Positions 5,280 to 50,933 of a DNA stretch of 51,123 nucleotides are shown piece by piece. Origin of the DNA: Candidatus Moraniibacteriota bacterium (GTDB lineage: Bacteria; Patescibacteriota; Minisyncoccia; Moranbacterales; UBA1568); NCBI GenBank assembly GCA_013336285.1, contig JAAXTX010000005.1:1-51123 (forward strand). Reading direction: 5' to 3'. The number at the start of each line of letters is the position of its first letter. Position 1 is the stretch's first letter. The notes under the pieces are model-generated. The model was given only the letters and a program-made list of their open reading frames with translations. It was not told where the DNA came from and ran no database searches. The translations under genes were made by a program, and so were the position numbers.

Positions 5280-6656
5280 TCAGACCTTCCGTACAGGAAA
5301 ATACTCCGCCGACTCCCGCCTGGAAATATCGCGCCCGCAGTATCTGGCCCCTTCGGCGCATTTCCCGGTCCGATAACACGGGGGCTCGAACATACCAAGC
5401 AAAGGACTCTCCGGGTTCCCTGCACCGATCGCTTCGCGAAGTTGGAGATTGTTATTATATATCTCCTGCTGTGCCGAAAAACAGAGACGTTTTTCCTGTT
5501 CATGCAATACGGCGTTGAACGATCCGCTTTTCTCATACGAGACCATCGCGCCGTACGGCGCCATGATCGTTTTAAGCGTAGACGAAACATCCAATTCCAG
5601 CCATCGGGACAAGATGTCTTCCGCTTCTGAATGCAAGCCGAGCTCCTTCATTATCGGCGGAACATAGAAAGACGGCAGGAAAACGGGTTCGCTTCGGCTG
5701 ACGGTCCGATGCCTCTGGTCCTGCCCCATGGTCGCGACCGACAGACCGACTCTCGTCACGATCCGTCCCATGGAATTATTCATCAATTCCGGAAGAAAGT
5801 GCAACCGATCGACCGGGTGCATATCGCGTGTGGCAGGCATGGTGAACAGCTCTTGATGCGCGATGTCGAGCAATGCAAGCGCCGGTTCCTCTAGAAGGCC
5901 GATCGGTCCCTCCGGAATTCGCGGATTCCAATCACGATCCTTCGATCGTCGACGATCAGGATCGAACAGGAACGATGCTTCCGGATACTCCCGAAGCACC
6001 GCGACCCGCATCAGGTCCGTCACACGCCGCATCACCGGATCCCATGCCGATTCCCAAAGCGCTACCAGCGCCGACCCGACGACGGTATACACCAATCCCG
6101 TCGGAAACACGACCGGGATAAGATTTCGCAACTGTTCCTGCGCTATCTTCCGGGCGTTGCCGAGCACTGTCTTTCCCGCGAATTTGCGCTCCTCGCGAAG
6201 CATTATTTCAGCAACGACAGCCGCGCGCTCCAGATTATCGACATAGACGCCGACACTGTGCCGCAGGTATGACATCGCCCGTTCGATCGATCCGGATCTT
6301 TCGTCCGGCCAGAAATACTGAACATACTCCCCGATGCGCTCGAAGTCGGGATTGAGAAACATGTCCGAGCAGAATCTTCCGCTCCGTTGGTCCGAATTAT
6401 AGAACGGACTCACGAGATGCAAGCCGAACGTCACATTACCGACGGCAATACCCTCGACCTGAAACGAGAATAACGAATGTTGCAGTGTCGTATGATGTCC
6501 TGTAGAAAAGAGTTTCTCTTTCACGAACTTGGCAGCCGATGCGTCTTTTCCGGTACCGATATCCGGTATCGCTCCCTGATAACAAGTCTTCGCCGCGTGT
6601 TCGGCTTTCGCGAGCGGATGAACAGCACAACAGTCGATCAATGTTACTTCGATCAT
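5280..6656 (-). CDS. thyX: ThyX-like flavin-dependent thymidylate synthase, long (about double-length) form
   Basis: N-terminal GHHTTLQH (ThyX-like H..EH), NSDQRSGRF, and a second-half QDQRHRTVSRS resembling the RHRxxS ThyX signature. SD GGAGAAG 5 nt before the ATG. At 458 aa it is about twice a canonical ThyX. Confidence 0.6.
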   Translation of the reverse strand: MIEVTLIDCCAVHPLAKAEHAAKTCYQGAIPDIGTGKDASAAKFVKEKLFSTGHHTTLQHSLFSFQVEGIAVGNVTFGLHLVSPFYNSDQRSGRFCSDMFLNPDFERIGEYVQYFWPDERSGSIERAMSYLRHSVGVYVDNLERAAVVAEIMLREERKFAGKTVLGNARKIAQEQLRNLIPVVFPTGLVYTVVGSALVALWESAWDPVMRRVTDLMRVAVLREYPEASFLFDPDRRRSKDRDWNPRIPEGPIGLLEEPALALLDIAHQELFTMPATRDMHPVDRLHFLPELMNNSMGRIVTRVGLSVATMGQDQRHRTVSRSEPVFLPSFYVPPIMKELGLHSEAEDILSRWLELDVSSTLKTIMAPYGAMVSYEKSGSFNAVLHEQEKRLCFSAQQEIYNNNLQLREAIGAGNPESPLLGMFEPPCYRTGKCAEGARYCGRDISRRESAEYFPVRKV

Positions 6657-6808: not shown

Positions 6809-6952
6809 CTACTTTTTCTTGGCGACCTTCTTTACCGCCTTCTTGGCGACCTTCTTTACCGCCTTCTTGGCGACCTTCTTTACCGCCTTCTTGGCGACCT
6901 TCTTTACCGCCTTCTTGGCGACCTTCTTGACGGCCTTTTTCTTTGCTGCCAT
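6809..6952 (-). CDS. Small (47-aa) Lys/Ala/Val tandem-repeat basic protein, histone H1/HC-like putative nucleoid or nucleic-acid binder
   Basis: Too short for the ORF track. Minus strand reads AAAGGAGGTG-aacact-ATG GCA GCA AAG AAA AAG ... TAG and translates to MAAKKKAVKKVA(KKAVKKVA)x4KKK. Strong SD, own promoter and own terminator. Confidence 0.75.
   Translation of the reverse strand: MAAKKKAVKKVAKKAVKKVAKKAVKKVAKKAVKKVAKKAVKKVAKKK
6821..6928. repeat. Perfect 24-bp tandem repeat, 4.5 copies (unit ggcgaccttctttaccgccttctt)
   Basis: Units at 6821, 6845, 6869 and 6893 are identical; a half unit follows at 6917-6928. In frame with the 47-aa CDS (KKAVKKVA per unit). Confidence 0.95.
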
Positions 6953-7628: not shown

Positions 7629-8258
7629 ATGGAAGAACAGAATGACACATTTGCGGAGGAGGGAAACGTAAAGAAAGTCCAGTCTTGGATCCAGGAGAAT
7701 CTTCGCATCATCACGAGCGTCTTCATCGTCGGGGTGATCGCGATCGGAATCTATTCGTATTCCGGAAGGTCGTTACCGACCGAAGTAAACGGAGTCGGCG
7801 GTCAGACGGCTTCCTCCGACACGGAAAAGATAGCCGAGGAAGGCAATGCGGACGTGAAGGATTCGTCTACGGACAACACGACGACGGACACTGCCGCGAA
7901 AACCACGGAGCCTGCGAAGGCAGTCGTGGAAACACCGGCCGAAACGAGTCGCGAAACGGAGACCTCTTTCGTCGAGACGGCGCAGGCCAAGCAAGGCCTC
8001 ACGAATCTCGCCCGAAAGGCCACCGCGAACTATCTCGAGAAGAACGCCGATTCATCGATTACCGCAGAACACAAGATCTACATCGAAGACTATCTTCGCA
8101 AGAATGTCGGACACCAGGGAGGCGTCCGCGTCGGTACCTCAGTCGAATTCTCGAAGGATCTCATTCAGAAAGCGGTCGCCGCCTCGAAGAATCTCAACGA
8201 GCGTCAACTCGAGAACCTGAAGAAATATTCGGCCCGGGTATCGGAATTCCGGAAGTAG
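7629..8258 (+). CDS. Single-pass membrane protein with a Thr/Glu-rich linker and a C-terminal 'domain X' shared with the 1401-aa protein
   Basis: AAAGGAAGG SD 8 nt before the ATG at 7629 (the track's GTG at 7620 is less likely). TM segment ITSVFIVGVIAIGIYSY, low-complexity linker. The C-terminal ~92 aa (7980-8255) align with aa 1117-1212 of the giant protein. Confidence 0.8.
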   Translation: MEEQNDTFAEEGNVKKVQSWIQENLRIITSVFIVGVIAIGIYSYSGRSLPTEVNGVGGQTASSDTEKIAEEGNADVKDSSTDNTTTDTAAKTTEPAKAVVETPAETSRETETSFVETAQAKQGLTNLARKATANYLEKNADSSITAEHKIYIEDYLRKNVGHQGGVRVGTSVEFSKDLIQKAVAASKNLNERQLENLKKYSARVSEFRK

Positions 8259-8291
8259 ACCATACGCTTATACCCGTTCTTTCCTGTACCG

Positions 8292-8316
8292 AAAACCCCC
8301 GCAACGCGGGGGTTTT
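8292..8316. terminator. Bidirectional rho-independent terminator between convergent genes
   Basis: AAAACCCCCGC-aac-GCGGGGGTTTT. An 11-bp GC-rich stem with A/T tracts on both sides. Confidence 0.85.
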
Positions 8317-8348
8317 CGTATTCCGGATTTCCGTCATCGCAAACGATT

Positions 8349-10892
8349 TCATCCTCCGACCTTCCGGGCGACGGTCAGAAAATTATTCACACGCTCAAGG
8401 ATCTCGCGGTTCACGATAACCGAATCACGGCCGTACCGGAGTCGCGAAAGTTCCTTGAACGCTTCCGCGACCCGACGATCACCCGATGACGATCGGAGCG
8501 TCTTTATATTGAACGGCTTGGTGAGCTCGTTGTTCATGAGAAGCCGGACCACGCACTGGTAATTGTCGATGCTCATAAGATCCTGTTTCGAAAAGACCGG
8601 TGCGAACTGTTTTTCGAGGAATTCCGCGTCCTCCGGTCCGACACGCAAGGCGATCATCGATCCGACATTCCCGAACACCGCCTTGGAAATCTCTTCCTTG
8701 AGCTGGGCGATGAACTGATGCACGATGATGAGATTGAGTCGGTATTTTCGCGCCTCGGACAGGATCTGTGCGATCGAGTTCGTCGTCACGTTCTGGAACT
8801 CATCCATATAGAGATAAAAGTCTTTCCGATCTTCCTCCTTCGTATCGACCCTCGACAATGCCGACATGAGAATCTTTCCGACGATAACCATACCGAGAAG
8901 CCTCGCGTTGATCTCGCCGATCTTTCCTTTCGAGAGATTGATGAGAAGAATCTTATTGCCATCCATGATTTCGCGGAAATTTATCCCGGACTGCTGCTGG
9001 GATATGATCGGACGCATGATATCGTTCGAAATGAACGTGGTGAGTTTCGAGGTGATGTACGGGACCATGTTCGCGAGCGCCGCCTCTCCGCCGGCCTTCT
9101 CAGCTTCTTTGGTCCAGAAATCACGAACGATCGGGTTAGCACAGTGGGAAAGTTTCATCCGGCGAAATTCCTCGTCGGCGAGCACGCGGGATATCTCCAT
9201 CAGGGTCGACCCGCTTTCGGGATGTTCCATTATAAGGAGCATCGCGTTTCGCATATACTGCTCGAACATCGGGCCTCCGGTCGATTTGAGGTCGTACAGC
9301 TGATCGAAAATACCGATCATCTCGTTTATGACGAACGTCTTCTGCTCGGGATGTTTCGGATCGAACTCGAGCATATTGAGCCCGATGGGTCGCTCGATGT
9401 CGGAGGGATCGAAGATAATCACGTCGTCTGCCCGTTCACGGGGGATACATTCGAGAATACTCTCGATCGCGTCGCCATGCGGGTCGATGAAACAGAACCC
9501 GTGTCCCTGCTTCGCGTCCCACTTCGCAAGTCCCTCTATGAAATTCGACTTTCCAGTGCCCGTCTGACCGATGACGTACATGTGACGCCGACGATCGTTG
9601 TCGGTGATGCGTATCTCGGTATTCGAGCCGCGATAATCGTTGTATCCCAGTGGAAGGCCTTCCTTCGGGACATTGATCGGAGGTGCGGCGACACCGGCCT
9701 TAAGCCATTTGATCTTCGGCGTCTCAGTGACGGAAATCGGAAAGTGAAATATTGACGCTACCTCCTCGGACGAGAGCAGCAACGAGTGCTCGCTATCGAA
9801 GTTTCGGAAAATATAATCGAATGCTGCCCGACTGTTCTTCATCCGTTTCTTCACGCGAAGCGTATTCACGTCCGTATATTCGAACTGTGTGAAAGCATTC
9901 TCCATGTGTGACAGTATCTGTTCCGCGCGAGAACTCGTCGTCGCCGATGCGAGCAGTCTTATATTGGCGCGAAATGCCGGGAGAGTCGCTTTCCTTTCGA
10001 TAGCTTTCACGACCTCCTGCTCCTCCGGGGTCAGGGATACGGTCTTATCCTCCGGACTCGGATGATTCGGATCCTTTGGATCCGACACACCGAACGAACC
10101 AACGGCACCCGCCTCTTTGAGAACGCCCTTTCCGACACTTTTCACGAAAGCCATCTGAGACGTATGAGCGCTCGATTGAGCCTCCTTGAGCCGTTTCCCC
10201 TGTTGCATATGCTGCGCGATTTCCCTTCCGTGCCGACGCCACTCGTTACCATGAACCGGAGCCAACACGACTTGTATGACCGCGCCCTCCGTCTCCGTAT
10301 CAAGACCGCTCATCGCATTTGCGAGCTCATCAAGGGAATCCGTCCCCATAGCCTGATATGTTCGAAGCGGTAGCGCGGCCGGTTTCTTGAGATCAAGGAT
10401 CGAGATAGCGGTCGCGCTTCCCGGAGTAAAGATCGAGTAGTCGGGAGCCTTCTCGATGACCGCGTCCGGAAAAAAACTGTGGATCTGTTTCTCTATACCA
10501 TCCCGAAACCGCTTCGGCATGGAGATATAGAACAAAATCTCCTCTGAGCCGGCCGGCTGTGACATTTCCAGGACGACGGTCGGTATTTCATAAAATATAC
10601 GTTCGATCGGTGAAATCACCCGTTTGAAGGACGCCATGGCCTCCAGCAGCTTCTCCATTATGAGTACTTCTTCTTTCCAAGCATCGGCAGGCTTCTGGTT
10701 ACCGTTCTCGGGATTCGGCCTTTTCGAGACCCTGACAAGCTCGATATCCATCGAAATCGACTGATTCACCTGTGCACGAAAACGGAAAAAACCCCTGAGA
10801 ATGAGAAATCCCCCGGTAACGATCGACAGCCCGCCGGAAAAAACAGCTATCGGTATGAATACGGCATTCCAATCAACCGCGTGCGGTGTCAT
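8349..10892 (-). CDS. Membrane-anchored P-loop ATPase, type IV secretion coupling protein (VirD4/TraD/TraG)-like
   Basis: 847 aa. N-terminal TM AVFIPIAVFSGGLSIVTGGFLIL. Walker A YVIGQTGTGKSNF (9546-9569), FCFIDPHGDA, Walker B FYLYMDEFQN, RKYRLNLIIVHQFIAQL...FGNVGSMIAL, matching the C-terminal layout of TraG/TraD-type coupling proteins. The first ~430 aa are not recognisable. Confidence 0.75.
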   Translation of the reverse strand: MTPHAVDWNAVFIPIAVFSGGLSIVTGGFLILRGFFRFRAQVNQSISMDIELVRVSKRPNPENGNQKPADAWKEEVLIMEKLLEAMASFKRVISPIERIFYEIPTVVLEMSQPAGSEEILFYISMPKRFRDGIEKQIHSFFPDAVIEKAPDYSIFTPGSATAISILDLKKPAALPLRTYQAMGTDSLDELANAMSGLDTETEGAVIQVVLAPVHGNEWRRHGREIAQHMQQGKRLKEAQSSAHTSQMAFVKSVGKGVLKEAGAVGSFGVSDPKDPNHPSPEDKTVSLTPEEQEVVKAIERKATLPAFRANIRLLASATTSSRAEQILSHMENAFTQFEYTDVNTLRVKKRMKNSRAAFDYIFRNFDSEHSLLLSSEEVASIFHFPISVTETPKIKWLKAGVAAPPINVPKEGLPLGYNDYRGSNTEIRITDNDRRRHMYVIGQTGTGKSNFIEGLAKWDAKQGHGFCFIDPHGDAIESILECIPRERADDVIIFDPSDIERPIGLNMLEFDPKHPEQKTFVINEMIGIFDQLYDLKSTGGPMFEQYMRNAMLLIMEHPESGSTLMEISRVLADEEFRRMKLSHCANPIVRDFWTKEAEKAGGEAALANMVPYITSKLTTFISNDIMRPIISQQQSGINFREIMDGNKILLINLSKGKIGEINARLLGMVIVGKILMSALSRVDTKEEDRKDFYLYMDEFQNVTTNSIAQILSEARKYRLNLIIVHQFIAQLKEEISKAVFGNVGSMIALRVGPEDAEFLEKQFAPVFSKQDLMSIDNYQCVVRLLMNNELTKPFNIKTLRSSSGDRRVAEAFKELSRLRYGRDSVIVNREILERVNNFLTVARKVGG

Positions 10893-10925
10893 AGTTTTTT
10901 TCGTTTTTGTTTCCGGCCCGACTTC

Positions 10926-11357
10926 CTATACTTTTATCACGCCCTTGGCCACCAGCGCATCATAGAACTTTTCCGCCATCTCATCATGCATCCTGTCAAG
11001 GACATAGAAGTCGTTCAATTTTATCGCCACTTTGACGGCATGCTCCGGACCCTTCGTTTCCGCCAAAGAAAGCAACCTTGTCACCCGCGCCTCGATATCC
11101 ATCTCGCTGAATACCGCCTGAGCGTCGGAAGCGACCGTCTGATCGTCACCCGAAACCGTCGAAATCTTCACCTGAGGAGTTACTTTCGTAAGTATTTCCG
11201 AATATTTCTCTCCCGCCCTTTCGCGTGCCTGCTCATGCTCGGACGATGATCCGGGTATCCGTTCCGGGGAATTCGGTATTTCTGAAACCGACCGCGAGGA
11301 AACCGTTTCCTGAGACGGCATATTCTCACCGATCGGCATATTCACGTCCTGCGGCAT
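10926..11357 (-). CDS. Hypothetical protein (143 aa from the ATG; 148 aa if the TTG at 11372 is used)
   Basis: ORF sits between the giant gene and the ATPase on the same strand. Ser/Pro/Glu-rich N-terminal half, helical-looking C-terminal half (...AVKVAIKLNDFYVLDRMHDEMAEKFYDALVAKGVIKV). No recognisable family. Confidence 0.6.
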   Translation of the reverse strand: MPQDVNMPIGENMPSQETVSSRSVSEIPNSPERIPGSSSEHEQARERAGEKYSEILTKVTPQVKISTVSGDDQTVASDAQAVFSEMDIEARVTRLLSLAETKGPEHAVKVAIKLNDFYVLDRMHDEMAEKFYDALVAKGVIKV

Positions 11358-11364
11358 ATCGGAA

Positions 11365-14300
11365 TTACTCAATACTTACACCATCCAGAGTCCAGACCAC
11401 CCGTTTCCCCTCCGACACAGTCCATTCTGCGACCCTCGCAAGATACTGCGCCGTAGATTCCCCGCCTATGGGAAGCCCGGACGGTTTCTTCCCGCTCGCT
11501 TGCCAGAACGCATTGACAATCCGTTCGAACGATTTCAACTGATTCGGTCCGAGCCCTGAGCTACCGTCATTCCGAGCGCAGTCATGAACGACCGTATACA
11601 CGTCTTCGGACGGCGTTCCCTTCATACCCGCAAGGTCCACGTAATGGCCGCGCGCGTCGGTACCGGACATTCCCTTATTGAACTCCTCCATCGCGCTCCA
11701 AAATTTCCCGACCTTTTCCGATGAGGACACTACTGACTCTGGCACCTTTATACCGGATTTTACCATACTATCGGCGAACAAGGTAGGACGTACCGGGACA
11801 TTCTCGCCGGTTAAAACCGTGTCTTTGATACTTTCCGACGGCGCCGGCATTTCGGGAACAACATCCCCGCCATGGATCACCGGGGGATTCACAACTTCTA
11901 CGGAATGATGTATGGCTGCCCCGTCATCCATCGATACCTCCTTACCGAACCCGCTCACCCTCTCTGAAAACTGATGAAGATTTTCCACCTGTGACGAACC
12001 GAGTCCCCTTGCCTTCGCAACCGCCTCATCGATAAGCTGACGGGAGAATCCGACCCGTTCCCCGATCCCTAACACGCCGACATGTGCGGTTTTCTTCTGC
12101 AGATAATCTTCAATGTACACTTTCTGTTCCGCGGAAAGTCCCGAGAGTTTAGGATTCTGCGCCGTATATTCCGCGAATGCCCGCCGTGCAAGATGCGTCA
12201 TCCCCTCACCGGACTTCGCTTCCGAGGTGAAGATATCCCCCGCTCGCGACACTCCCGCACCGGCCGTATCCGTCATCTGTCGGACGGTCTCGACTGCCGA
12301 GCCTTCGGGACGCACCCCTTCTGCGACAGTTCCAATCGCCGATTGACCGGGAACACTGGTACCGCCCGTATCCTCTATGACCTTTTCAGAGCCATATACC
12401 CGATCAAGCGCCGTCCTGGCTGTCTCTGAACCGGAATGAGACGCCTGCGGATGAGCCCACTCCCCGACCCAATGCGCCACTCCGACACCAAGCGTGGATA
12501 TCGAACCGGAGATGACTGCTCCCTTGATAGTCTCATGCCGGACATACGCCTCCCGAGCGGAATCGACTCGCCCATCCTCTTTCCGTTGTCGTTCTCCGAA
12601 CATCCGTCCGAACCGTACCGATACACTTCCCTCGGCTTTTTCATTGGAATCAGCGAAGAGTCCCAGGGTGAGTTCCGCTCTCGATAACGATTCCAAAAGC
12701 CGTACCCGACCGCGGATTCCCTCTGCATCATCGCCGAAACTCACCTTATCCTCGTCGAGTTTCTTCTTCACGTACTCGACACGGGCTAGCAGATTGCCAA
12801 GCTCCCGCTCGCGAGCCTCGGCAGCATCCGGGGAAAGCGAATCTATCCGCCCCAGGATAATATCAAGACGTTCCGACAAGCCGCGTTTCCGTCCGTCTTC
12901 CTTTTCAGTCATCGGCACCGTTGCACGGACCATTGCCCGCTTTCCCGCTGCCAGTCTTTTCTCCGATCCCAGTGCGACGCTTCGCATCATGTTTCCGAAC
13001 CAGCCGTCTTCCGATTTTTTCGACTCCGCCGCCCTCTCGTCTATGCCTCGGCGTGACTTCCGGTCAAGATCAGAAAGGGCTTCCTTGGCACGACGGTTCG
13101 CCATCACCCCACCGGTAAAGAAAGAAACGAGTGGCGCGACAGCGAGACCGAGCGTTCCTGCCACCCCCATCATGCCGACTGCGCCACCGACCGCCATTCT
13201 GCCTGCCGCGCCTCCAGCAAAATAAGCACCACGTTCGACCAATGTCGTCCTAAGAAAAGAAGAAATCGAACCCCGTTCCCTGATATCGTTCAGGTATTCC
13301 CCGATTTCCGGGTGTGACTGGATATGTTGCACCAGACTGACACGGTTCTCAGCGATGCGAAGGGCCCCGTATTCCTGGGTCAAACCGGCGTATGCCGCGG
13401 CATCGTCTCCACGCTCCGTCGTAAAAATGACATGTTCGACCCTCATGCCGGCATCTTCGAATAGTTTCCTTTCGTCCGCGTATTGCTGTCGCTGCTTCTT
13501 GGTCGCACCTTCATAGGACCATTCCTGGGGAATTTTCGAAAAACGGTTCGCCGCCTCGTTGTAAGACTCACATTCCTTCCTTATAATCTCATTCTCAGCC
13601 ATCCCGGCAGAGATGGTCAGAAAACGTACGTCGAACTTTCCATCCTTTTCTTCGAGATCCAATCCTGCCGCATGTATACCGTTCACCAATTGCCTGAGTT
13701 CCTCGCCATACGTCCCGATGCCGCCGGAGGCCATCCTTTCCACAAGGTCCTTACGCGTTTTCGCCAGACGGTAACCTTTCGTGATGCCAGCCTTCGTCGT
13801 GTCGCGTGCCACGTCCTCGATCTTGTTCACGGCCGTCTGACGAAGCATCTCTACAGCGAACAGCTGCTGATCACGCGTCAAGGTCCCAAAAGCGGGAACC
13901 TCGTTTTCCAGGTCCCTCATACGAATTCCGAATTCCTGGTGAAGTTGCAACGCCGGTCCGTTGAAAACGAAAGGCTTTCCCGACGTGTCACCGCTCATCG
14001 GTTCCGGTGATTTGTTCTCCGGTCCACTTTCCGTTTCCGCGGTTATGACCGGCTCACTGGCCGTGTTCATCGTCTCCTTGGTCGGATCCCCCGACTCTTC
14101 CGACTTCTCGACGATTATCCCATCCTCAGACATGGGCGTCCGTTCCGTCAATTCATTCCCATCGTCGCGAACTTCTCCCGCAACCATATCTTCCAAGATG
14201 TCCCCAATCGATTCCCTTTCACGCGCGAGCGCGGCCCGGAGCAACCTTAATCGCTCTCTCGATTCATCGATATGACGCAGTCTCTCAAGAAGCGGGCTTT

Positions 14301-15570
14301 CCTCTTCATCGCGACTTTGTCTCAAGTGATCCTCCGATACGAAATGAGAACCAAGCCTCCCGATGATAAAATCCTCTTTCTTCTTCCGTTCGGAGCGAAT
14401 ATCGTTCAACTGCTCCACCAATCCGTGCCGGTCGGACTCAGCCGCGGCGACTTCTCCTTCCCTCCCACGAATAAGACCGGTCAACGTTTCGATCCGAGAA
14501 CGGGCCCTCTCATGTTCGTTCGCGAGCGCCTCATCGGAAGTAAGGGAGAGGTCGCTCTTCCGTGATTCGAGTTCGGCTATACGGAGTTCCTTCAATTCCG
14601 GCTCCATCACATACTCAAGATCTGCCTCCTTCAAAGCGATTTTCCGCTCAATCTCCGATATGTTCGATTCCAAAAAACCGATGTACGTTTCATCCGGATG
14701 CTCTCTCCCTTTCCATTCATCCAATCTCGCCCTCTCGCGGACAAGGGCCTGTCGCGTCTCCTCGATAGACTCCGAAAAATGAACCGGATTCTCCGAATCA
14801 AGCTTCTTCAATCTTTTCTGTTCCCCGTCCAACGCGGAACGCTCCGAAACTTCGATGGATCTGTCACGTTTCTTCGAATCCGTGCTGTTTTTCGGACGCT
14901 CCGGGACTGCGACGGCTGACCCCGCGACAGGAAGGACGGCTCCCGACTTTTCGGGATTTTCCACACTTTCCGATCCACTGCCAAGATCAACCGAAGAAAC
15001 CGTCACTCCCCCATTTTCGGTATCTTCGGATCCTCCCGACGGATTTTCCTCCACGGACATAAGGACGCTGACAAGACGTTCAGCCTGTTCCTTCCTTAGC
15101 CGTTCATCCCTCTGCGCTGCCTCACTATCCCATTTTCCAAGATGAGGCCCCTTATCGGGCCGGCGTTCAAGAACCAGCCCTTCCGCGGCTTTCAACTTCT
15201 TCCGTTGCGCAAATTCCGGAACGTCGTGCGACGTTCCGTTTCCCCGAAAAAGAAGTTCCTCCGCCTCTTTCCCATAATCCTGCCTGCTGCGTCGCATCGG
15301 CTCCAACCTTCCTTGCAACTCCGGACCGACTGTTTTCTCCAGGTCATTCCAGATCATAAAAAGTTCCTTCCCCTCCTGATCCGTCAGTCGGACTGATTGA
15401 CGTTTGGCATCCAGTTCACCGGCTCGCGCGCGCAAACGCCTATACTCTGCCGCGAGTTCCGAGGTCGTCCAAATTCGTTCGCGAAATCGGAAGGGCTTGA
15501 TTTCATCAGTGCCACCCCTTTTTCCATTCGCTTTCTCGGATTCCGTGGGTTCCTCCATATCGGACAACAC
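11365..15570 (-). CDS. Giant (1401-aa) coiled-coil, three-TM membrane protein of unknown function
   Basis: Uninterrupted ORF. About 780 aa are acidic, heptad-like and Glu/Arg/Leu-rich. Gly/Ala-rich TM hairpin at about aa 782-824 (13099-13227), third hydrophobic segment at about aa 1017-1037 (12460-12522), domain X at aa 1117-1212 (11935-12222), then a 189-aa C-terminal domain. Start is uncertain (GTG 15570 or ATG 15558); no SD. Confidence 0.8.
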   Translation of the reverse strand: MLSDMEEPTESEKANGKRGGTDEIKPFRFRERIWTTSELAAEYRRLRARAGELDAKRQSVRLTDQEGKELFMIWNDLEKTVGPELQGRLEPMRRSRQDYGKEAEELLFRGNGTSHDVPEFAQRKKLKAAEGLVLERRPDKGPHLGKWDSEAAQRDERLRKEQAERLVSVLMSVEENPSGGSEDTENGGVTVSSVDLGSGSESVENPEKSGAVLPVAGSAVAVPERPKNSTDSKKRDRSIEVSERSALDGEQKRLKKLDSENPVHFSESIEETRQALVRERARLDEWKGREHPDETYIGFLESNISEIERKIALKEADLEYVMEPELKELRIAELESRKSDLSLTSDEALANEHERARSRIETLTGLIRGREGEVAAAESDRHGLVEQLNDIRSERKKKEDFIIGRLGSHFVSEDHLRQSRDEEESPLLERLRHIDESRERLRLLRAALARERESIGDILEDMVAGEVRDDGNELTERTPMSEDGIIVEKSEESGDPTKETMNTASEPVITAETESGPENKSPEPMSGDTSGKPFVFNGPALQLHQEFGIRMRDLENEVPAFGTLTRDQQLFAVEMLRQTAVNKIEDVARDTTKAGITKGYRLAKTRKDLVERMASGGIGTYGEELRQLVNGIHAAGLDLEEKDGKFDVRFLTISAGMAENEIIRKECESYNEAANRFSKIPQEWSYEGATKKQRQQYADERKLFEDAGMRVEHVIFTTERGDDAAAYAGLTQEYGALRIAENRVSLVQHIQSHPEIGEYLNDIRERGSISSFLRTTLVERGAYFAGGAAGRMAVGGAVGMMGVAGTLGLAVAPLVSFFTGGVMANRRAKEALSDLDRKSRRGIDERAAESKKSEDGWFGNMMRSVALGSEKRLAAGKRAMVRATVPMTEKEDGRKRGLSERLDIILGRIDSLSPDAAEARERELGNLLARVEYVKKKLDEDKVSFGDDAEGIRGRVRLLESLSRAELTLGLFADSNEKAEGSVSVRFGRMFGERQRKEDGRVDSAREAYVRHETIKGAVISGSISTLGVGVAHWVGEWAHPQASHSGSETARTALDRVYGSEKVIEDTGGTSVPGQSAIGTVAEGVRPEGSAVETVRQMTDTAGAGVSRAGDIFTSEAKSGEGMTHLARRAFAEYTAQNPKLSGLSAEQKVYIEDYLQKKTAHVGVLGIGERVGFSRQLIDEAVAKARGLGSSQVENLHQFSERVSGFGKEVSMDDGAAIHHSVEVVNPPVIHGGDVVPEMPAPSESIKDTVLTGENVPVRPTLFADSMVKSGIKVPESVVSSSEKVGKFWSAMEEFNKGMSGTDARGHYVDLAGMKGTPSEDVYTVVHDCARNDGSSGLGPNQLKSFERIVNAFWQASGKKPSGLPIGGESTAQYLARVAEWTVSEGKRVVWTLDGVSIE

Positions 15571-29841: not shown

Positions 29842-30948
29842 TCAATTCTTGAGACAACGAACAGAAAGAGCATACGACTTATAATCGGATCCGTACGCCC
29901 GGCGGATCTTCGCGGATCCGGAATCAAGATATCGAAACCACGTTTCGTTTCCGTTTCGATCGGAAGTCCACAGGTAGGTATTCGAGCCACGTCCGCCGAA
30001 ACCGCCGCTTGCATTCCGCGAACCCGGCAGTAGAGCCGTAAAACCGGAAGAATTATTACCACCGGAAGTCAACGTGGAAAGGGCCGCTCCTTCGACCGTT
30101 CCGCGATCTCCGCCGGTAGTCGTATCCAATGGGAAATCGGTAAGACAGGTTCCCGATTTGCAAAGCGCCCTTTCCAGGTTGGTGAACTCGTCATGAGTCG
30201 GAATATGCCATCCCGAAGGACATATTCCCTGAGCCCCGGAAGATGTCGAGCCATGCATCGCGGCACCCCACTGATACACGTACCCCAGACTTCCGACAGT
30301 CGACTCTTCAATCGTATTCTGCACGTTCGGCGGAAAAGCATAGTACGCGTGATCGGTTCCGTCCCATGTGGCCCCGTTCGGGCCCCGATTGATCGCCGAA
30401 CCGTCGGGATATTTGGTTGTCTTCATGTTCTGCTTCATCCAGCATTGTGTTCCGATCGTGACCGTATCGTACGTGTTATTGTCCTCGTCCTTTACGGATA
30501 TCGTGGTTCCGCAACCGACAGGCTTCACCGCCACCTGCACGGCGCGGGTCGTCCCCTGCGATGTTCCCTCTGACTTGATCGACGTCACGTTGCTGCTCGG
30601 ACCGGAACAGTCCGTAAGACGGACCCCGTCAACGTCGTAGAACCGGACCGTCCAACCGGCATTTTGATTTTTCACCGTCCCATCGACACAAGAAAGTCCG
30701 AGATTACTCGCGACCGTCGCGATAGTATCCGGACCTTTCTGATACAGTTGATACAGGATCATATCGGCACCCGAATCGGCGACCTGAAAGGAGTGGGTCG
30801 AATCACCCGTGGATAATGCTGATTTTTCCTGAAACACCGCCGACGAGAGGAGCGTAAGCGAGGTCACCAACATGACCGAAAGAATGATGAGCGAGAAAAC
30901 AAGTACGGATCCTTCCTTTCGGACCCTGAACAGCGATGATTTCTTCAT
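29842..30948 (-). CDS. Secreted or pilus-associated protein: PilX-like hydrophobic N-terminus plus a C-terminal FISUMP (Fibrobacter succinogenes major paralogous) domain
   Basis: N-terminus KEGSVLVFSLIILSVMLVTSLTLLSSAVFQ. C-terminal half TIGTQCWMKQNM...YYAF...YVYQWGAAM...CPSGWHIPTHDEFTNLE...GFTALLPGSR...YLWTS...SVRCLKN matches the FISUMP pattern. Confidence 0.7.
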   Translation of the reverse strand: MKKSSLFRVRKEGSVLVFSLIILSVMLVTSLTLLSSAVFQEKSALSTGDSTHSFQVADSGADMILYQLYQKGPDTIATVASNLGLSCVDGTVKNQNAGWTVRFYDVDGVRLTDCSGPSSNVTSIKSEGTSQGTTRAVQVAVKPVGCGTTISVKDEDNNTYDTVTIGTQCWMKQNMKTTKYPDGSAINRGPNGATWDGTDHAYYAFPPNVQNTIEESTVGSLGYVYQWGAAMHGSTSSGAQGICPSGWHIPTHDEFTNLERALCKSGTCLTDFPLDTTTGGDRGTVEGAALSTLTSGGNNSSGFTALLPGSRNASGGFGGRGSNTYLWTSDRNGNETWFRYLDSGSAKIRRAYGSDYKSYALSVRCLKN

Positions 30949-41090: not shown

Positions 41091-42083
41091 TTATGCCGGC
41101 ATGTCGGGAATAAGCCGGGACACGATCTGATCAAGCTCTTCATCGGAATAGTATTCGACGACGATCCGACCTCCCTTTCCTGCAGGCTTGACCGCGACCT
41201 TGGTTCCGAGAACGGCCGACATCCGATCAGCTTTCTCGACGAGTGCCGGAGAAAGTGACGACCCGTGACGGATATGGGAACGAACGACCGTTTCCCGGAC
41301 CTTCGCTTCCGTGGCACGGACAGTGAGTCCGAGTTTCACGATGAGTTCAAACAGCGCCCGTTGCTTCTCCGGATTATCGACGGAGAGCAGCGCCTTCGCG
41401 TGACCTTCCGAGATCTTTCCCTCGGCAACGGCACGTTGGATCTCCACGGGCAACACCAGCATACGGACGATATTCGCGACCGCACTCCGACTCTTCCCCA
41501 TCTTCTTCGCGACCTCTTCCTGGATCAAACCGAATTCATCCATGAGTCGCGCGTATGCTTTGGCTTCTTCTATCGGGTTAAGATCGTGACGCTGAACGTT
41601 CTCAATGATGGCAAGTTCGAGCTTTTCCTGTTCTTCCGCATCCCGGACAATGACGGGAACCTTCGACAGACCGGCCAACTTTGACGCCTGGAGCCGTCTT
41701 TCACCCGCGATAAGTTCATATTTTCCACCCGGCTTCGGTGAAACGACAAGTGCCTGAATCACTCCATGTTCGCGGATGGAATCGGCAAGCTCCCTGAGCT
41801 TCCCTTCATCGAAATGGAACCGTGGCTGATGCGGATTCGGCACGATGTCGGCGACCGGAACCTCTCTCATTCCGGATGACATCGTTTCGGATACCGTTGA
41901 CGCGACAGGAGGAGCCACAGGCGCGGACGGCTCGGATACCGCCGATTTCAAGGTCTGGGATAAGTCGACGCCTTGTGCTTCCATGGCCTTGATCGTCATA
42001 TCCCGAAACGGCGAATCCTTATCATCTTTCTTCGGAGGTATGAGTGACGAGAGTCCTCGCCCGAGTCCGTGTTGTTGTGCCAT
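41091..42083 (-). CDS. parB: Chromosome partitioning protein ParB
   Basis: GLGRGLSSLIP, ELIAGERRLQASKLAG, HTH region SQEEVAKKMGKSRSAVANIVRML. Confidence 0.93.
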   Translation of the reverse strand: MAQQHGLGRGLSSLIPPKKDDKDSPFRDMTIKAMEAQGVDLSQTLKSAVSEPSAPVAPPVASTVSETMSSGMREVPVADIVPNPHQPRFHFDEGKLRELADSIREHGVIQALVVSPKPGGKYELIAGERRLQASKLAGLSKVPVIVRDAEEQEKLELAIIENVQRHDLNPIEEAKAYARLMDEFGLIQEEVAKKMGKSRSAVANIVRMLVLPVEIQRAVAEGKISEGHAKALLSVDNPEKQRALFELIVKLGLTVRATEAKVRETVVRSHIRHGSSLSPALVEKADRMSAVLGTKVAVKPAGKGGRIVVEYYSDEELDQIVSRLIPDMPA

Positions 42084-42107
42084 AAGACAAGAATCAAGGA
42101 TGAGGAA

Positions 42108-42878
42108 TCACGCTTTCTTTTCCGTTTCCACTATTTCCCTCGCTACGGACTTGTATGCCCTGGCGCCCTTCGAGAACGCGTCGAAGTCGAGGATGGACTT
42201 TCCATAACTCGGCGCTTCCGCGAGACGGACGGATCGCGGGATGACCGTCTCGAAGACCGGGCCGGGAAAATGCGCCCTGACCTCGTTCACCACCTGCTGT
42301 GCGAGTCGGTTCCGTCGGTCGAACAAAGTCAAAAGAGCGCCCATGATCTTGAGGTTCGGCTGAAGCCGCTCACGGACCAGTTCGATGGTACCGAGCAGCT
42401 GCGAGAGTCCCTCAAGCGCGTAGTATTCCGTTTGGACCGGAATGACAACCTCGTCGCTCGCGACAAGCCCGTTCACGGTTAGGAGTCCGAGGCTTGGCGG
42501 ACTGTCGATGAGAATATAGTCATAGAATGAACGAAGCGGCCGGAGAACGGTATACAGACGGAATTCCCTCGCGTCGATATGTACCATCTCGATTTCCGCG
42601 CCGGCGAGATCTTGGGCCGCGGGAATGATATGCAGACGCGGTACGTTGGTCGAAAGCACGATTTCCTGTGATGAGAGCGTCCCGATCATGGCATGATACA
42701 GGTTTTTCTCGATACCACGTGGATCGATACCGAGACCCGACGAGGCGTTCCCTTGCGGATCGAGGTCGACCAATAACACTCTCTTCCCAAGATCCGCCAG
42801 ACTGCGGGCGACATTGATGGTCGAGGTGGTCTTTCCCACGCCACCTTTCTGATTCACGAATGCGACGATTTTTGCCAT
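42108..42878 (-). CDS. parA: Chromosome partitioning ATPase ParA/Soj
   Basis: Start reset to MAKIVAFVNQKGGVGKTT (deviant Walker A). DLDPQGNAS, ILIDSPPSLG. Confidence 0.93.
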   Translation of the reverse strand: MAKIVAFVNQKGGVGKTTSTINVARSLADLGKRVLLVDLDPQGNASSGLGIDPRGIEKNLYHAMIGTLSSQEIVLSTNVPRLHIIPAAQDLAGAEIEMVHIDAREFRLYTVLRPLRSFYDYILIDSPPSLGLLTVNGLVASDEVVIPVQTEYYALEGLSQLLGTIELVRERLQPNLKIMGALLTLFDRRNRLAQQVVNEVRAHFPGPVFETVIPRSVRLAEAPSYGKSILDFDAFSKGARAYKSVAREIVETEKKA

Positions 42879-43095
42879 ATCGGTTTCCAGTGAACAGAAA
42901 ACGGCTAACATACAGCCCGCCCCGAGACGATCAAAACCGATAGTCTCAGAAATGACTGCTCTGACCGTATTCTTTATTCCCCTGTTTTTCGTTATCTGTT
43001 CGTTGTTATCTGTCCTTCCCATTATATTCCATTGACACTCTCTTTTCAATTGCCTATCCTTGGCCTATACGAGGCTATGAGAAACGGCCTCGAAT

Positions 43096-47633: not shown

Positions 47634-50600
47634 CTACACCACCAGATTCACGAGCTTCCCGGGAATGACTATAACGCGTTTAGGTTCCTTGCCGTCGAGA
47701 AATTTCGCGACTTTCTCACTTCCCAGTGCTTTCGCCTTCAGGTCATCCTCGGTCGCGTCCGCGGAGATTTCGAACGAATCACGGACCTTTCCATTCACCG
47801 AGACGACGATCGTCACGGTATCCTCAACGAGAAGTGTCGGATCGGCCTCCGGCCACGATGACAGGAAAATGGATTCCGTATTGCCAAGTTCCGTCCACAG
47901 CTCCTCCGCCATATGCGGCGCGAACGGGGACAGGAGCCTGAGAAATATGCCATACGATTCTTTCGCGACGGACTGTTCCTTCTCAAACGCGTTGGCGAGA
48001 ATCATGAGCGAGCTCACTCCCGTATTGAACCGGAACGCGTCAATGTCATCCGTCACCTTCACGACGGTCCTGTGAACGAGTCCGTCGATTTCCCGTACCG
48101 CATCGGCGGAATCGGAAACCTTTCCTGACAATTTCCATACCTTCTCCAGGAACCGTCTTGTACCGATGACCCCATCCGTGCTCCAGGAGATGTTCTGGCT
48201 GAACGGCCCCATGAACATCTCGTAGAGCCGCATCGCGTCCGCGCCGAAGTCACGTACCATGTCGTCGGGATTGATGACGTTCCCCCAGCGTTTGGACATC
48301 TTTCGTCCGTCGGATGCGAGGATGAGACCGACATTGACTAGCTTTCGGAACGGTTCGTCCGTCGAGACCGCACCGATATCGAAGAGGAGCTTATGCCAGA
48401 ACCGCGCGTAAATGAGATGCCGCGTCGCGTGTTCGGCTCCCCCGACATACGCGTCGACGGGCATCCATTTTTGTTCATCTTTCTTGTCGACGATCGCGTC
48501 CTGATTCTTCGGATCGATATAGCGCAGGTAGTACCACGACGATCCCGCCCATTGCGGCATCGTGTTCGTCTCGCGCTTCGCGGGACCGCCGCACACGGGG
48601 CAGGTAGTATTCACCCAGTCGTCTATACCGGCCAGTGGCGACTCTCCCGTCCCCGTCGGCTCATAACTTTCTACGTCCGGCAAGACGACGGGAAGTTCCG
48701 ACTCCGGCACCGGCACGACCCTGGAAACATGCATGGGTTCGAGTTCCCAGCCGACGAGTCCGTTCTCGCGTATCCGCTTCACATAGTCCGGCGAGAGCGC
48801 CGTGTACGATTCCTCCAACTCTTCCGCGGTCGAGAATTCGCGGCTGAAGATTTTTCCGTGCAGATCCTTCTTTTCAGACTCGAACAGTTCCCGGACATCC
48901 TTGAAACGATAGGCCGTCTTCACCCTGAACAATTTCGTTTCTCCCGTCGGCTTAAACGCGAATCGGAGCGTATCACCTTCCGCGACATCCCCGAAATATC
49001 TCTCGGGCTCGTCGGGATTCAAGGCACGCGTCTCGACCGTCTTCTTTCCGGACAGCAGAAGTTTCCATATCTTCTCTTCACGGAAGTTCAACGTGAGTTT
49101 AACTGCGGCCTCGTTCGCCGCACACGACTCGCAATGCACGAGCGGGATCGGTTCGCCCCAATATCGCTGACGCGAGAACACCCACTCACGAAGCTTGTAC
49201 TTCACTACTTTTTTCCCACGTCCTTCGGACTCGAGTTTTTCGGTGATTTTCTCCCGGGCATCTTTCGACGAAAGACCGGAAAATATCTCCGAGTTCACGA
49301 GAAATCCGTCGTCGACGAACACCTTCCCGTTCAGGTATTCCCAATCGACGGCATCCTTTTCCCGTTTCTTTCCCTGCAACTGATACTCCTTGAATTCCCT
49401 GGCGAACCTCAGACTGAGTACGAGCGCCCCGTGTCCGCTCAATACCTTTTCATCTTCCTCGAAATCCTCGTCCGTCAAGCCGAACTCCCCGATATTCGGT
49501 CCGATATCGATTTCCATGCCTTGATCATTCGCATACACGACGTTGGTGAGTTCTTCCGACAATTTCTTCCGTTTCACTTCCCTGTACCCAAGAGAGGAAA
49601 ACACCTCGAGGGCGACAGACTGTGTTGCGGCGTCCTTGACGATAAGATCCATATCGTCATGCCCGCGATACACGATACCCGCATGGAACGCGCATGAAAG
49701 ACCGCCGAGAACCCAGATGTCGATGCCTCTTTCCTTGGCCGCCTTTCGCACCTCATCAAGTGCCTGAAGGGTTTTTTCGGTCCGTTCGAAATCGGAGAAA
49801 TCGGGAGTGACAGACTGCCGTACGGGAAGTCCGTACTTCCTCGCGAAAACGGCATCGCGCGTATCGTGCGCCGGGACCGCCATAACCGCGCCGGTTCCGT
49901 AATCGCCGAGCACATAGTCCGCGACGAATACCGGGACTTCCTCGCCGTTGATCGGATTGACCGCCATAATTCCCTCGAGCCGGACGCCCGTCTTCTCGCG
50001 CCCTTCAGCGGTCCTCTCCATCTCGGTCTTCTTCTTCGTCTCCTCTAAATATGCGAGAATTTCCTCCTGATTCTTGATTCCCGTTCCCCGTTTACCGCTA
50101 TCCGTCATCCGTTCTCTGACCAAAGGATGTTCCGGCGCGACCACTACATACGTGCAGCCGAAGAGCGTATCGACACGCGTCGTAAAAACATCAATGTATT
50201 CTTCTGCTTCGTTTGGAAATTCGAAATTCGAAATTCGAAATTTTACAATAGTTCCCTCGCTCCGGCCGATCCAGTTCCGCTGTGATTCCTTTATCGACTC
50301 CGGCCAATCAAGTCCTCCAAGCCCCTCCAAAAGACGATCGGCGTAATCGGTGATACGAAGTACCCACTGCCGCATCGGCTTCTTCTCGACGACGGTCCCG
50401 CACCGCTCACACGCCCCATTCTCCAGGTCCTCGTTCGCGAGTCCCGTCTGACACGACGGACACCAGATGATCGGCTCGTACGATTCATAAGCGAGTCCCT
50501 TTTTGAACATCTGAAGGAATATCCACTGCGTCCACCGGTAATATTCGGGGTCGGTCGTGTTTATTTCGCGATCCCAATCGTAGGTGAAACCGAGCCGGCC

Positions 50601-50933
50601 AAGCTGCTGTTTAAAGGTCGCGACGTTTTCACGTGTCGTCTTGTTCGGATGCGTCCTGTTCTTTATCGCATATTGTTCCGCCGGAAGACCGAATGCGTCC
50701 CACCCCATCGGATGTAGCACCGCGAAACCTTGGAGCTGTTTCATTCGGGCGATGACATCGGTCGAAATGTACCCCTTCGGATGCCCCACATGAAGCCCGG
50801 CCCCCGACGGGTACGGGAACATATCGAGCGCATAGAATTTCTTCCCACGGCCGTATTGTCGGAATGTTCCCTGTTCCTCCCAGATTTTCTGCCACTTCCC
50901 CTCGATATTTTCGGGGTTATATCGCCCATTCAT
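47634..50933 (-). CDS. leuS: Leucyl-tRNA synthetase with two extra inserted domains (1099 aa)
   Basis: FPYPSGAGLHVGHPKGY (HIGH), CP1 editing domain (TTRVDTLFG...AVPAHDTRD), SRQRYWGEPIP, WAGSSWYYLRY, KMSKRWGN (KMSKS). In-frame extra blocks at aa ~376-536 and ~606-737. Confidence 0.95.
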   Translation of the reverse strand: MNGRYNPENIEGKWQKIWEEQGTFRQYGRGKKFYALDMFPYPSGAGLHVGHPKGYISTDVIARMKQLQGFAVLHPMGWDAFGLPAEQYAIKNRTHPNKTTRENVATFKQQLGRLGFTYDWDREINTTDPEYYRWTQWIFLQMFKKGLAYESYEPIIWCPSCQTGLANEDLENGACERCGTVVEKKPMRQWVLRITDYADRLLEGLGGLDWPESIKESQRNWIGRSEGTIVKFRISNFEFPNEAEEYIDVFTTRVDTLFGCTYVVVAPEHPLVRERMTDSGKRGTGIKNQEEILAYLEETKKKTEMERTAEGREKTGVRLEGIMAVNPINGEEVPVFVADYVLGDYGTGAVMAVPAHDTRDAVFARKYGLPVRQSVTPDFSDFERTEKTLQALDEVRKAAKERGIDIWVLGGLSCAFHAGIVYRGHDDMDLIVKDAATQSVALEVFSSLGYREVKRKKLSEELTNVVYANDQGMEIDIGPNIGEFGLTDEDFEEDEKVLSGHGALVLSLRFAREFKEYQLQGKKREKDAVDWEYLNGKVFVDDGFLVNSEIFSGLSSKDAREKITEKLESEGRGKKVVKYKLREWVFSRQRYWGEPIPLVHCESCAANEAAVKLTLNFREEKIWKLLLSGKKTVETRALNPDEPERYFGDVAEGDTLRFAFKPTGETKLFRVKTAYRFKDVRELFESEKKDLHGKIFSREFSTAEELEESYTALSPDYVKRIRENGLVGWELEPMHVSRVVPVPESELPVVLPDVESYEPTGTGESPLAGIDDWVNTTCPVCGGPAKRETNTMPQWAGSSWYYLRYIDPKNQDAIVDKKDEQKWMPVDAYVGGAEHATRHLIYARFWHKLLFDIGAVSTDEPFRKLVNVGLILASDGRKMSKRWGNVINPDDMVRDFGADAMRLYEMFMGPFSQNISWSTDGVIGTRRFLEKVWKLSGKVSDSADAVREIDGLVHRTVVKVTDDIDAFRFNTGVSSLMILANAFEKEQSVAKESYGIFLRLLSPFAPHMAEELWTELGNTESIFLSSWPEADPTLLVEDTVTIVVSVNGKVRDSFEISADATEDDLKAKALGSEKVAKFLDGKEPKRVIVIPGKLVNLVV

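Follow-up and report, generated by a model that had tools for sequence, protein, structure and literature searches.

A VirD4/TraD-class coupling ATPase encoded away from type IV secretion genes in a Moranbacteria contig, and the small protein that accompanies it

Homologues of the VirD4-type coupling proteins of type IV secretion systems (T4SSs) are abundant in Patescibacteria. A survey of this phylum catalogued 5,713 such type IV coupling protein (T4CP) homologues in 2,918 genomes, 148 of them close to virB4 (Quiñonero-Coronel et al. 2025, PMC12102498). VirB4 itself was found in 2,417 of 3,035 genomes, with virB4 of Paceibacteria commonly located near dnaA. The survey analysed virB4 neighbourhoods only, cites a Saccharibacterial t4cp as non-essential, and leaves open an exaptation of the T4CP homologues (PMC12102498). 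Here we describe a coupling-type ATPase and its neighbours from a member of the Moranbacteria (Patescibacteria). The window, i.e. the whole stretch of DNA that was analysed, is the complete contig JAAXTX010000005.1 of 51 kb (51,123 nucleotides), the rest of the genome lying outside the data. The ATPase gene follows two genes on the same strand, which encode a 143-aa protein (s148) and a 1401-aa membrane protein (hereafter the giant), and it converges with a gene for a 212-aa membrane protein. The ATPase is a typical representative of a very large family that is chromosomal in almost all Patescibacteria and located away from T4SS genes, and it forms with s148 a stable two-gene core.

Judged by its sequence, the 847-aa ATPase is a true T4CP homologue of the VirD4/TraD class, of the monoderm type with a DUF8128 N-domain, in agreement with the preliminary description of this DNA, which had assigned it to this class. 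It exceeds the gathering scores of the Pfam families TrwB_AAD_bind (PF10412, 31.7 bits for a cut-off of 20.5), TraG-D_C (PF12696, 26.3 for 22), and T4SS-DNA_transf (PF02534, 20.8 for 20.1), and also that of DUF87 (PF01935), whose match spans aa 426–514 only. A C-terminal block (IVHQFIAQL...GNVGS) is present in the translation, and the ATPase motifs are invariant across 32 homologues. These signatures show the predicted FtsK/HerA-class ATPase domain to be intact and to carry the marks of a T4CP. The NCBIfam models of TraD, VirD4-like, CedD, and HerA proteins give partial matches only, far under their cut-offs. The N-domain is assigned via homologues: PF26449 (DUF8128) is precomputed in all 120 homologues listed (66–89% identity) and in distant ones too, and was not returned by the Pfam scan for the window ATPase itself. 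Literature searches on DUF8128 and on DUF5663, a family met in the neighbourhood, found nothing.

The homology extends to plasmid T4CPs. A tblastn search of plasmids with the window ATPase returned distant relatives, all below 60% identity. The protein WP_345805471.1 (885 aa) of a Bacillus subtilis plasmid (NZ_CP154917.1) is 27% identical to the ATPase over 564 aa (E 7e-41), and its gene is directly followed by those of a Replic_Relax relaxase, TcpC, TcpE, and an AAA_10 VirB4. Similarly, USK36540.1 from Bacillus sp. F19 aligns with the ATPase family profile (hhalign 99.8%, E 9e-28) over query residues 96–792, or about 635 columns, and is followed by a relaxase and a gene with the annotation "conjugal transfer protein". 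The models of other families stay below their cut-offs. The FtsK/SpoIIIE model PF01580 reaches 13.7 bits for a cut-off of 24, over 26 residues only, and the HerA equivalog models reach 20 bits for cut-offs of 800–850, with no NurA-like gene in the neighbourhood.

The ATPase has a single N-terminal transmembrane (TM) helix with arginines on its C-terminal side, so that, following the positive-inside rule, most of the protein is expected to lie in the cytoplasm. The full-length AlphaFold2 (AF2) model is mediocre (pLDDT 60.6); it places helices at residues 517–621, between Walker A and Walker B, within the 427–752 span of the PF10412 match. With the C-terminal half, Foldseek retrieves Cag-beta, DotL, TrwB, and HerA at TMt values of 0.41–0.51 (0.44–0.51 for TrwB, Cag-beta, and DotL). 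The best E-values are obtained with full-length TrwK/VirB4 chains (E 6e-9, 800–880 aligned columns) at TM-scores of about 0.2. Because the TM-scores are this low and no VirB4 profile matches, the VirB4-like character of the N-domain is kept as a hint, tentative and at the level of the modelled fold: AAA_10, CagE_TrbE_VirB, and P-loop_TraG have no Pfam match on the ATPase at E≤0.1, and the CD1110 VirB4-like model scores 13 bits for a cut-off of 325.

The distribution of the family was assessed with one genome per species and with clusters represented at 50% identity. At least 590 species representatives encode a relative of the ATPase. The best 80 relatives all come from Moranbacteria or related metagenome-assembled genomes (MAGs), at 60–87% identity and with the same housekeeping synteny. 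At E≤1e-30 the family comprises 5,405 clusters, of which the best 150 are 30–53% identical to the ATPase, most of them aligned over nearly the full length. Some family members (P0259–P0279, e.g. P0262 of 2006 aa, and locus L086) carry Pro/Ala-rich, uninformative C-terminal extensions of 400–1200 aa that terminate in a conserved domain of about 100–370 aa belonging to no known family. In a BLAST matrix of selected members, groups follow lineage, and no relative was found among the viral contigs of IMG/VR; the pattern is consistent with a vertically inherited, chromosomal core gene. Within the window's subclade (eight loci), identity to relatives is 75–88% for the ATPase, 58–78% for the PMT_2 glycosyltransferases, 48–67% for s148, 58–60% for holB, and 42–48% for ftsQ; the giant reaches 33–37%, in comparisons where the ATPases share 77–80%. 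The ATPase is the most conserved gene of the neighbourhood and, by this measure, under very strong constraint. The giant, in contrast, evolves fast, and its absence from some relatives (below) marks it as dispensable.

The gene had been described as an orphan, a term that fits the locus and not the genome, the unlinked arrangement being the published norm. An exact-sequence look-up identified the ATPases of three related loci (L042, L046, and L079) as KKQ45516.1, KKP90548.1, and KKP85141.1. All three are listed in Table S3 of the Patescibacterial survey as T4CP (t4cp1, 91–94% coverage), with VirB4 proximity scored as No (PMC12102498). The sister genome with locus L046 (GCA_000991245.1) encodes VirB2 pilins, a PrgI-like protein, TrsD, and VirB4 among its genes 729–751; its VirB4 (gene 733) and T4CP (gene 918) are 185 genes apart. 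Genomes scored as lacking VirB4 retain adjacent TrsD and VirB3 genes, and one also retains VirB6. In the window, Pfam scans of about 40 open reading frames (ORFs) detected no relaxase, VirB4, VirB6, VirB8, or integrase, as noted earlier from inspection of the sequence, and no relaxase or T4SS channel gene is linked to the ATPase in about 80 related loci. The sole direct T4SS-type neighbour observed is found in one distant lineage, where the ATPase of locus L088 is followed by a 673-aa protein (12558–14576 of that locus) with a T4SS_pilin-like segment scoring 25.8 bits, just below the cut-off.

To define the conserved neighbourhood, ORFs were called and clustered in 84 related loci and the window, and s148 and DUF5663 were counted with profile hidden Markov models (HMMs) on the DNA upstream of the ATPase in 81 non-redundant Moranbacteria loci. 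The usual arrangement comprises two PMT_2 genes on the opposite strand, then a variable large protein, a DUF5663 protein of about 100 aa, s148 (about 140 aa), and the ATPase. Downstream stands a convergent gene for a protein of 700–990 aa, then a MarR-like gene, RmuC, and others. s148 lies immediately 5' of the ATPase in 78 of the 81 loci; DUF5663 occurs in 63 of them and is missing from the window's subclade. The stable unit is thus the two-gene core of s148 and ATPase. Conservation of the neighbourhood, which the preliminary description had put forward as a check, is borne out for the small gene and the ATPase; it does not hold for the giant, which is variable, nor for the 212-aa protein. 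The convergent 700–990-aa protein, which has no Pfam match, is followed by MarR-like, RmuC, and MraY-like transferase genes in L001, L002, and some 55 other loci, and this block is absent from the window's subclade.

In the window, the ATG of s148 is located 7 nt past the stop codon of the giant, and 33 nt separate s148 from the ATPase. The N-terminal half of s148 is acidic and disordered, and a four-helix domain (aa 68–138) makes up its C-terminal part, with AF2 pLDDT values above 90 for aa 70–140. Its 68 homologues all lack Pfam matches and come from contigs whose lengths equal those recorded for the ATPase homologues, and s148 has no Foldseek match at E<1, no match among PDB sequences, and no Pfam or NCBIfam family. 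It is detectable in Moranbacteria and close relatives only. Distant ATPases are also preceded by small ORFs of no known family (50–210 aa), not recognisably homologous to s148, and sometimes by large ORFs of no known family; HMMs of s148, DUF5663, and the C-terminal domain of the upstream proteins detect nothing in these distant lineages. A relationship of s148 with DUF5663, or a DUF5663 domain hidden in the giant, was considered and rejected (hhalign probabilities below 3%).

The giant has no significant Pfam or NCBIfam match; neither has s148 nor the 212-aa protein, which agrees with the earlier statement that none of the three matches a nameable family. It has three homologues only in a large protein collection, two of them on contigs matching in length those of ATPase or s148 homologues, and the giant family proper occurs at six loci only. 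The large upstream proteins split into many clusters that have in common one central hydrophobic stretch and a C-terminal domain of about 110–140 aa. This domain links the giant to U903 (hhalign 96.6%, E 6e-10) and c70 to U903 (96.8%), and is found upstream in 61 of 85 loci. An obligate partnership of the giant with the ATPase is not supported. The closest relative, whose ATPase is 87–88% identical, lacks the large gene altogether, s148 and the ATPase following a divergent PMT_2 gene after 96 nt, and two other lineages likewise lack it at the s148-ATPase locus. On this comparative evidence the giant is a local, expanded, fast-evolving, and dispensable member of a hypervariable family of upstream membrane proteins. 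Several relationships were rejected for these proteins. As to VirB2 or T4SS pilins and VirB6, no Pfam match was obtained even at E≤5, and hhalign found no similarity to a T4SS_pilin-bearing neighbour of a distant homologue. The giant is also unrelated to a protein of at least 1886 aa that precedes the ATPase in a distant lineage.

The 212-aa protein is a single-pass membrane protein with a domain, here called domain X, at its end. It aligns with residues 1024–1210 of the giant (33% identity over 192 aa, E 2e-24), the TM helix, linker, and domain X of about 96 aa being common to both. It has no significant Pfam or NCBIfam family, SpoIIIAH scoring 19.2 bits for a cut-off of 30.6. The family is found in 43 loci, usually 6–9 kb downstream of the ATPase past five or six genes, and the gene is adjacent to the ATPase here because these intervening genes are missing in the window's subclade. 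The 212-aa protein, previously counted with the block, is therefore a conserved Moranbacteria gene, a paralogue of a segment of the giant, and a syntenic bystander rather than a component of the module. Domain X belongs to no known family and has been copied into the lineage of the giant and into two other upstream proteins (L052 and L065).

A counterpart with functional data is found in Saccharibacteria. Locus L092 encodes a DUF8128 ATPase of 994 aa with 37% identity to the window ATPase over 726 aa (E 2e-151). Its gene order, with M50 protease, rplT, rpmI, infC, Mg-chelatase, two small ORFs, ATPase, gyrB, gyrA, and DUF212, is that of SEML1_0134–0147 in Southlakia epibionticum. In the transposon sequencing (Tn-seq) data of the latter, SEML1_0142, a 1019-aa ATPase with a TraM-recognition domain, is scored ES/ES/ES, the 139-aa SEML1_0141 directly upstream of it GD/ES/ES, the 117-aa SEML1_0140 GD or NE (NE/GD/GD), and SEML1_0293, a second T4CP-like gene, NE/NE/NE (Wang et al. 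2023, Table S1). The T4SS genes of S. epibionticum are likewise essential. The same study reports a Saccharibacterial T4SS cluster without a recognisable coupling protein and leaves the SEML1_0142 tag unmentioned in its main text (Wang et al. 2023). Synteny and length suggest that SEML1_0142 is equivalent to the L092 ATPase. By synteny, SEML1_0142 and SEML1_0141 thus appear to be the essential counterparts of the window's ATPase and of the small gene upstream of it. We infer that the remark on a non-essential t4cp (PMC12102498) probably refers to SEML1_0293.

How does this motor work, and with what? We consider the chances about even that the ATPase is the substrate receptor and motor of a T4SS encoded elsewhere. 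It would assemble as a membrane-associated hexamer and, powered by ATP, recruit substrates and pass them on to the Patescibacterial T4SS (VirB4/TrsD/PrgI/VirB6/pilins), a system derived from monoderm conjugation systems and encoded elsewhere, which would lack a coupling protein of its own. By analogy with CagZ, IcmS/W, or TraM on other T4CPs, s148 may act as an adaptor or regulator. The variable upstream membrane protein, here the giant, could be a cargo or docking partner that is recognised via its conserved C-terminal domain, and would be an accessory rather than a required part. T4SS effectors of Xanthomonas carry C-terminal VirD4-binding domains, which provides an analogy for the cargo idea.

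A number of points weigh against such a role. No experiment is known to link any Patescibacterial T4CP with a T4SS, and in nearly all genomes the two are unlinked (PMC12102498). T4CP homologues occur in 2,918 genomes and VirB4 in 2,417, a difference confounded by the incompleteness of MAGs (PMC12102498), and neither a relaxase nor a known substrate is present in the window. There is also another T4CP-like paralogue, and either of the two could serve the T4SS; the Saccharibacterial paralogue SEML1_0293 is non-essential (Wang et al. 2023), and the equivalence of SEML1_0142 comes from synteny and not from direct alignment. The full-length structural model is mediocre, as stated above. The upstream protein may expose its C-terminal domain outside the cell and thereby, after insertion, beyond the reach of a cytoplasmic ATPase. 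Finally, for the window's own genome the data end with the 51-kb contig.

It is possible, if unlikely, that the s148-ATPase pair and the upstream variable membrane protein form an autonomous, T4SS-independent translocation or assembly device, for example one exporting or installing hypervariable surface proteins that are recognised by the conserved C-terminal domain. The conserved operon with its 7-nt and 33-nt gaps would fit such a device, as would upstream proteins that vary apart from their common C-terminal domain, the small and sometimes large ORFs of no known family that precede the ATPase in distant lineages, and an ATPase unlinked to virB4 in a family for which exaptation has been left open (PMC12102498). 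However, the large protein is gone in the closest relative and in two lineages while the ATPase is still highly conserved, the upstream proteins of distant lineages are not mutually homologous, no channel-forming component is recognisable, and the nearest characterised homologues all operate with a T4SS. A bolder form of the idea, in which s148 and the DUF8128 ATPase would constitute an essential T4SS-independent translocase for fast-evolving, sometimes giant surface proteins addressed via their C-terminal domain of about 110 aa, is distinctly unlikely; if true, it would mean that episymbiotic bacteria have converted a coupling protein into a translocase devoted to surface proteins. Also rather unlikely is a T4CP exapted for the cell's own DNA, either for FtsK-like chromosome clearance at division or as a DNA-uptake motor in nucleotide-scavenging Patescibacteria. 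For a T4CP, the ATPase is extremely conserved; its gene is, by synteny, essential in Saccharibacteria, it is located near ftsQ and holB in Moranbacteria and near gyrBA in Saccharibacteria-like loci, and the ATPase falls within the FtsK/HerA superfamily. Against this, the FtsK_SpoIIIE model stays below its cut-off (13.7 bits for 24), no DNA-recognition domain is detectable, TM7x papers mention a separate FtsK, and ComEC and type IV pili are credited with the competence of these bacteria.

That the locus is what remains of an integrated conjugative element or plasmid is highly improbable, and effectively refuted. T4CPs are typical of mobile elements and weak plasmid homologues do exist, but about 80 species have this housekeeping synteny in common, integrase, relaxase, and repeats are all absent, GC content is uniform, clades track taxonomy, and plasmid matches stay below 60% identity with no viral match at all. 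An anti-phage defence ATPase of the HerA/MADS type is unlikely in the extreme. PADLOC reports a mad8 match (E 1.5e-13) and weak HerA matches on the P-loop domain, but they are limited to the generic core of the ATPase. Partner genes for defence are absent, and the other three proteins are without meaningful PADLOC match, the only one for the giant being a weak match to LmuB (E 0.0029). Moreover, in contrast to defence islands, the gene occurs universally, in synteny, and with high conservation.

The positions of the features are given in Table 1. The genes, motifs, spacings, and hairpin between the two convergent genes reported in the preliminary description were confirmed by ORF calling, translation, and folding. 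The hairpin has folding energies of −26 kcal/mol on the plus strand and −28 kcal/mol on the minus strand (z = −4.0 and −5.3 relative to shuffled sequences); a simple terminator scan of the window missed it because its U-run lies partly within the stem. Pfam scans also bear out that housekeeping genes flank the block: rpsB, prfA, prmC, thyX, three PMT_2 glycosyltransferases, ftsQ, holB, mreB, murA, murD, glycolysis genes, parAB, and leuS. In GC content the block (0.52–0.56) does not differ from the remainder of the window.

Table 1. Positions of the coupling-type ATPase, its neighbours, and their sequence features in the 51-kb window.
Feature	Protein residues	Window position (nt)	Strand	Basis or remark
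Giant membrane protein	1401 aa	11365–15570	-	from GTG; 1397 aa from ATG at 15558 in protein collection
Giant, N-terminal region	~790 aa		-	charged
Giant, Gly/Ala-rich hydrophobic hairpin	792–825	13096–13197	-	hydropathy
Giant, domain X	1114–1208	11947–12231	-	similarity to 212-aa protein
Giant, family-defining C-terminal domain	~1286–1388	11407–11715	-	hhalign
Small protein s148	143 aa	10926–11357	-	ORF; 148-aa TTG variant reaches 11372
Coupling-type ATPase	847 aa	8349–10892	-	ORF
ATPase, TM helix	10–36	10785–10865	-	AVFIPIAVFSGGLSIVTGGFLILRGFF, checked by translation
ATPase, DUF8128-type N-domain	~96–400	9693–10607	-	PF26449 in homologues
ATPase, FtsK/HerA-superfamily nucleotide-binding domain	~420–800	8493–9635	-	Pfam
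ATPase, Walker A GQTGTGKS		9546–9569	-	checked by translation
ATPase, Walker B FYLYMDEF		8796–8819	-	checked by translation
Convergent membrane protein	212 aa	7620–8258	+	from GTG; 209 aa from ATG
Convergent membrane protein, domain X		7965–8255		
Bidirectional terminator-like hairpin		8289–8317	both strands	13-bp stem; between ATPase and convergent 212-aa gene

Some other features of the window can be mentioned. A near-perfect 24-bp tandem repeat (6816–6937; 5.1 copies, 97% matches) is located between thyX and the next genes; it would translate to repeated FLATFFTA units on one strand and repeated GRQEGGKE units on the opposite one. The ThyX-like protein itself (5280–6656, minus strand) has 458 aa, about twice the usual size, with the Thy1 match confined to its first ~200 residues. 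The leucyl-tRNA synthetase (47634–50933, minus strand; 1099 aa) has a normal editing domain and an additional segment (aa 393–480) that weakly matches the aminoglycoside-2''-adenylyltransferase family. A pilin-like protein with PilX_N and Fib_succ_major domains is encoded at 29842–30948 (minus strand). The ParB-ParA pair (41091–43049, minus strand) adjoins a tRNA-Leu gene, which may mean that the contig ends not far short of the replication origin and hence of the usual T4SS site in Paceibacteria.

The locus itself is one more copy of a catalogued family and not a discovery. The family, for its part, occurs almost universally, and with unusual conservation, in a phylum that has no coupling protein in its T4SS clusters, and it comes with a fixed small partner. 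The searchable literature appears to be silent on the s148-ATPase core, on the C-terminal domain common to the upstream proteins, and on the apparent essentiality of the Saccharibacterial counterpart. This last point, which comes from the sole Tn-seq data set for Patescibacteria, is at odds with the published statement of a dispensable t4cp. Whether the motor feeds a T4SS, and what its cargo is, bears on how episymbiotic Patescibacteria act on their hosts.

Compared with known systems, the window ATPase is closest to the surveyed T4CPs located far from virB4, which belong to the same protein family and are likewise chromosomal and without relaxase; the survey contains no description of the DUF8128 N-domain, of the 143-aa partner, of DUF5663, or of the variable protein upstream (PMC12102498). 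SEML1_0140–0142 present a similar layout, with small ORFs (117 and 139 aa) before a T4CP-like ATPase of about 1000 aa in a housekeeping context, and the syntenic Saccharibacterial ATPase P0365 is 37% identical to that of the window over 726 aa. However, the small upstream proteins of SEML1 have no detectable similarity to s148 or DUF5663, and the SEML1_0142-type ATPase has a C-terminal extension that the window ATPase lacks. The archaeal Ced system, with which the locus had been loosely compared, also pairs a membrane-associated FtsK/HerA-superfamily ATPase with small membrane proteins, but the analogy is not supported: the CedD model (NF053655) fits only the P-loop of the window ATPase (30.3 bits for a cut-off of 600, aa 423–482 only) and no CedA-like proteins are present. 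VirB4, as exemplified by TrwK of R388, resembles the ATPase in size and two-domain layout and differs from it by profile, with no VirB4-family Pfam match and TM-scores of about 0.2. TrwB of R388, VirD4, Cag-beta, and DotL share with it the ATPase fold and the N-terminal anchor; the helices that the mediocre model places between its two Walker motifs may correspond to their helical insertion. Sequence similarity to the solved T4CP structures is confined to the Walker A region, and whereas canonical VirD4 has two TM helices, the window ATPase has one, plus an extra cytoplasmic N-domain of about 300 aa. The T4CPs of Bacillus plasmids (869–885 aa, annotated as DUF87 proteins) are of similar size and homologous from the N-domain through the ATPase domain. 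They adjoin relaxase, TcpC, TcpE, and VirB4 genes, whereas the window ATPase is a conserved chromosomal core gene without these neighbours. Given this homology, the DUF8128 N-domain is part of a monoderm-type T4CP architecture rather than a Patescibacterial invention.

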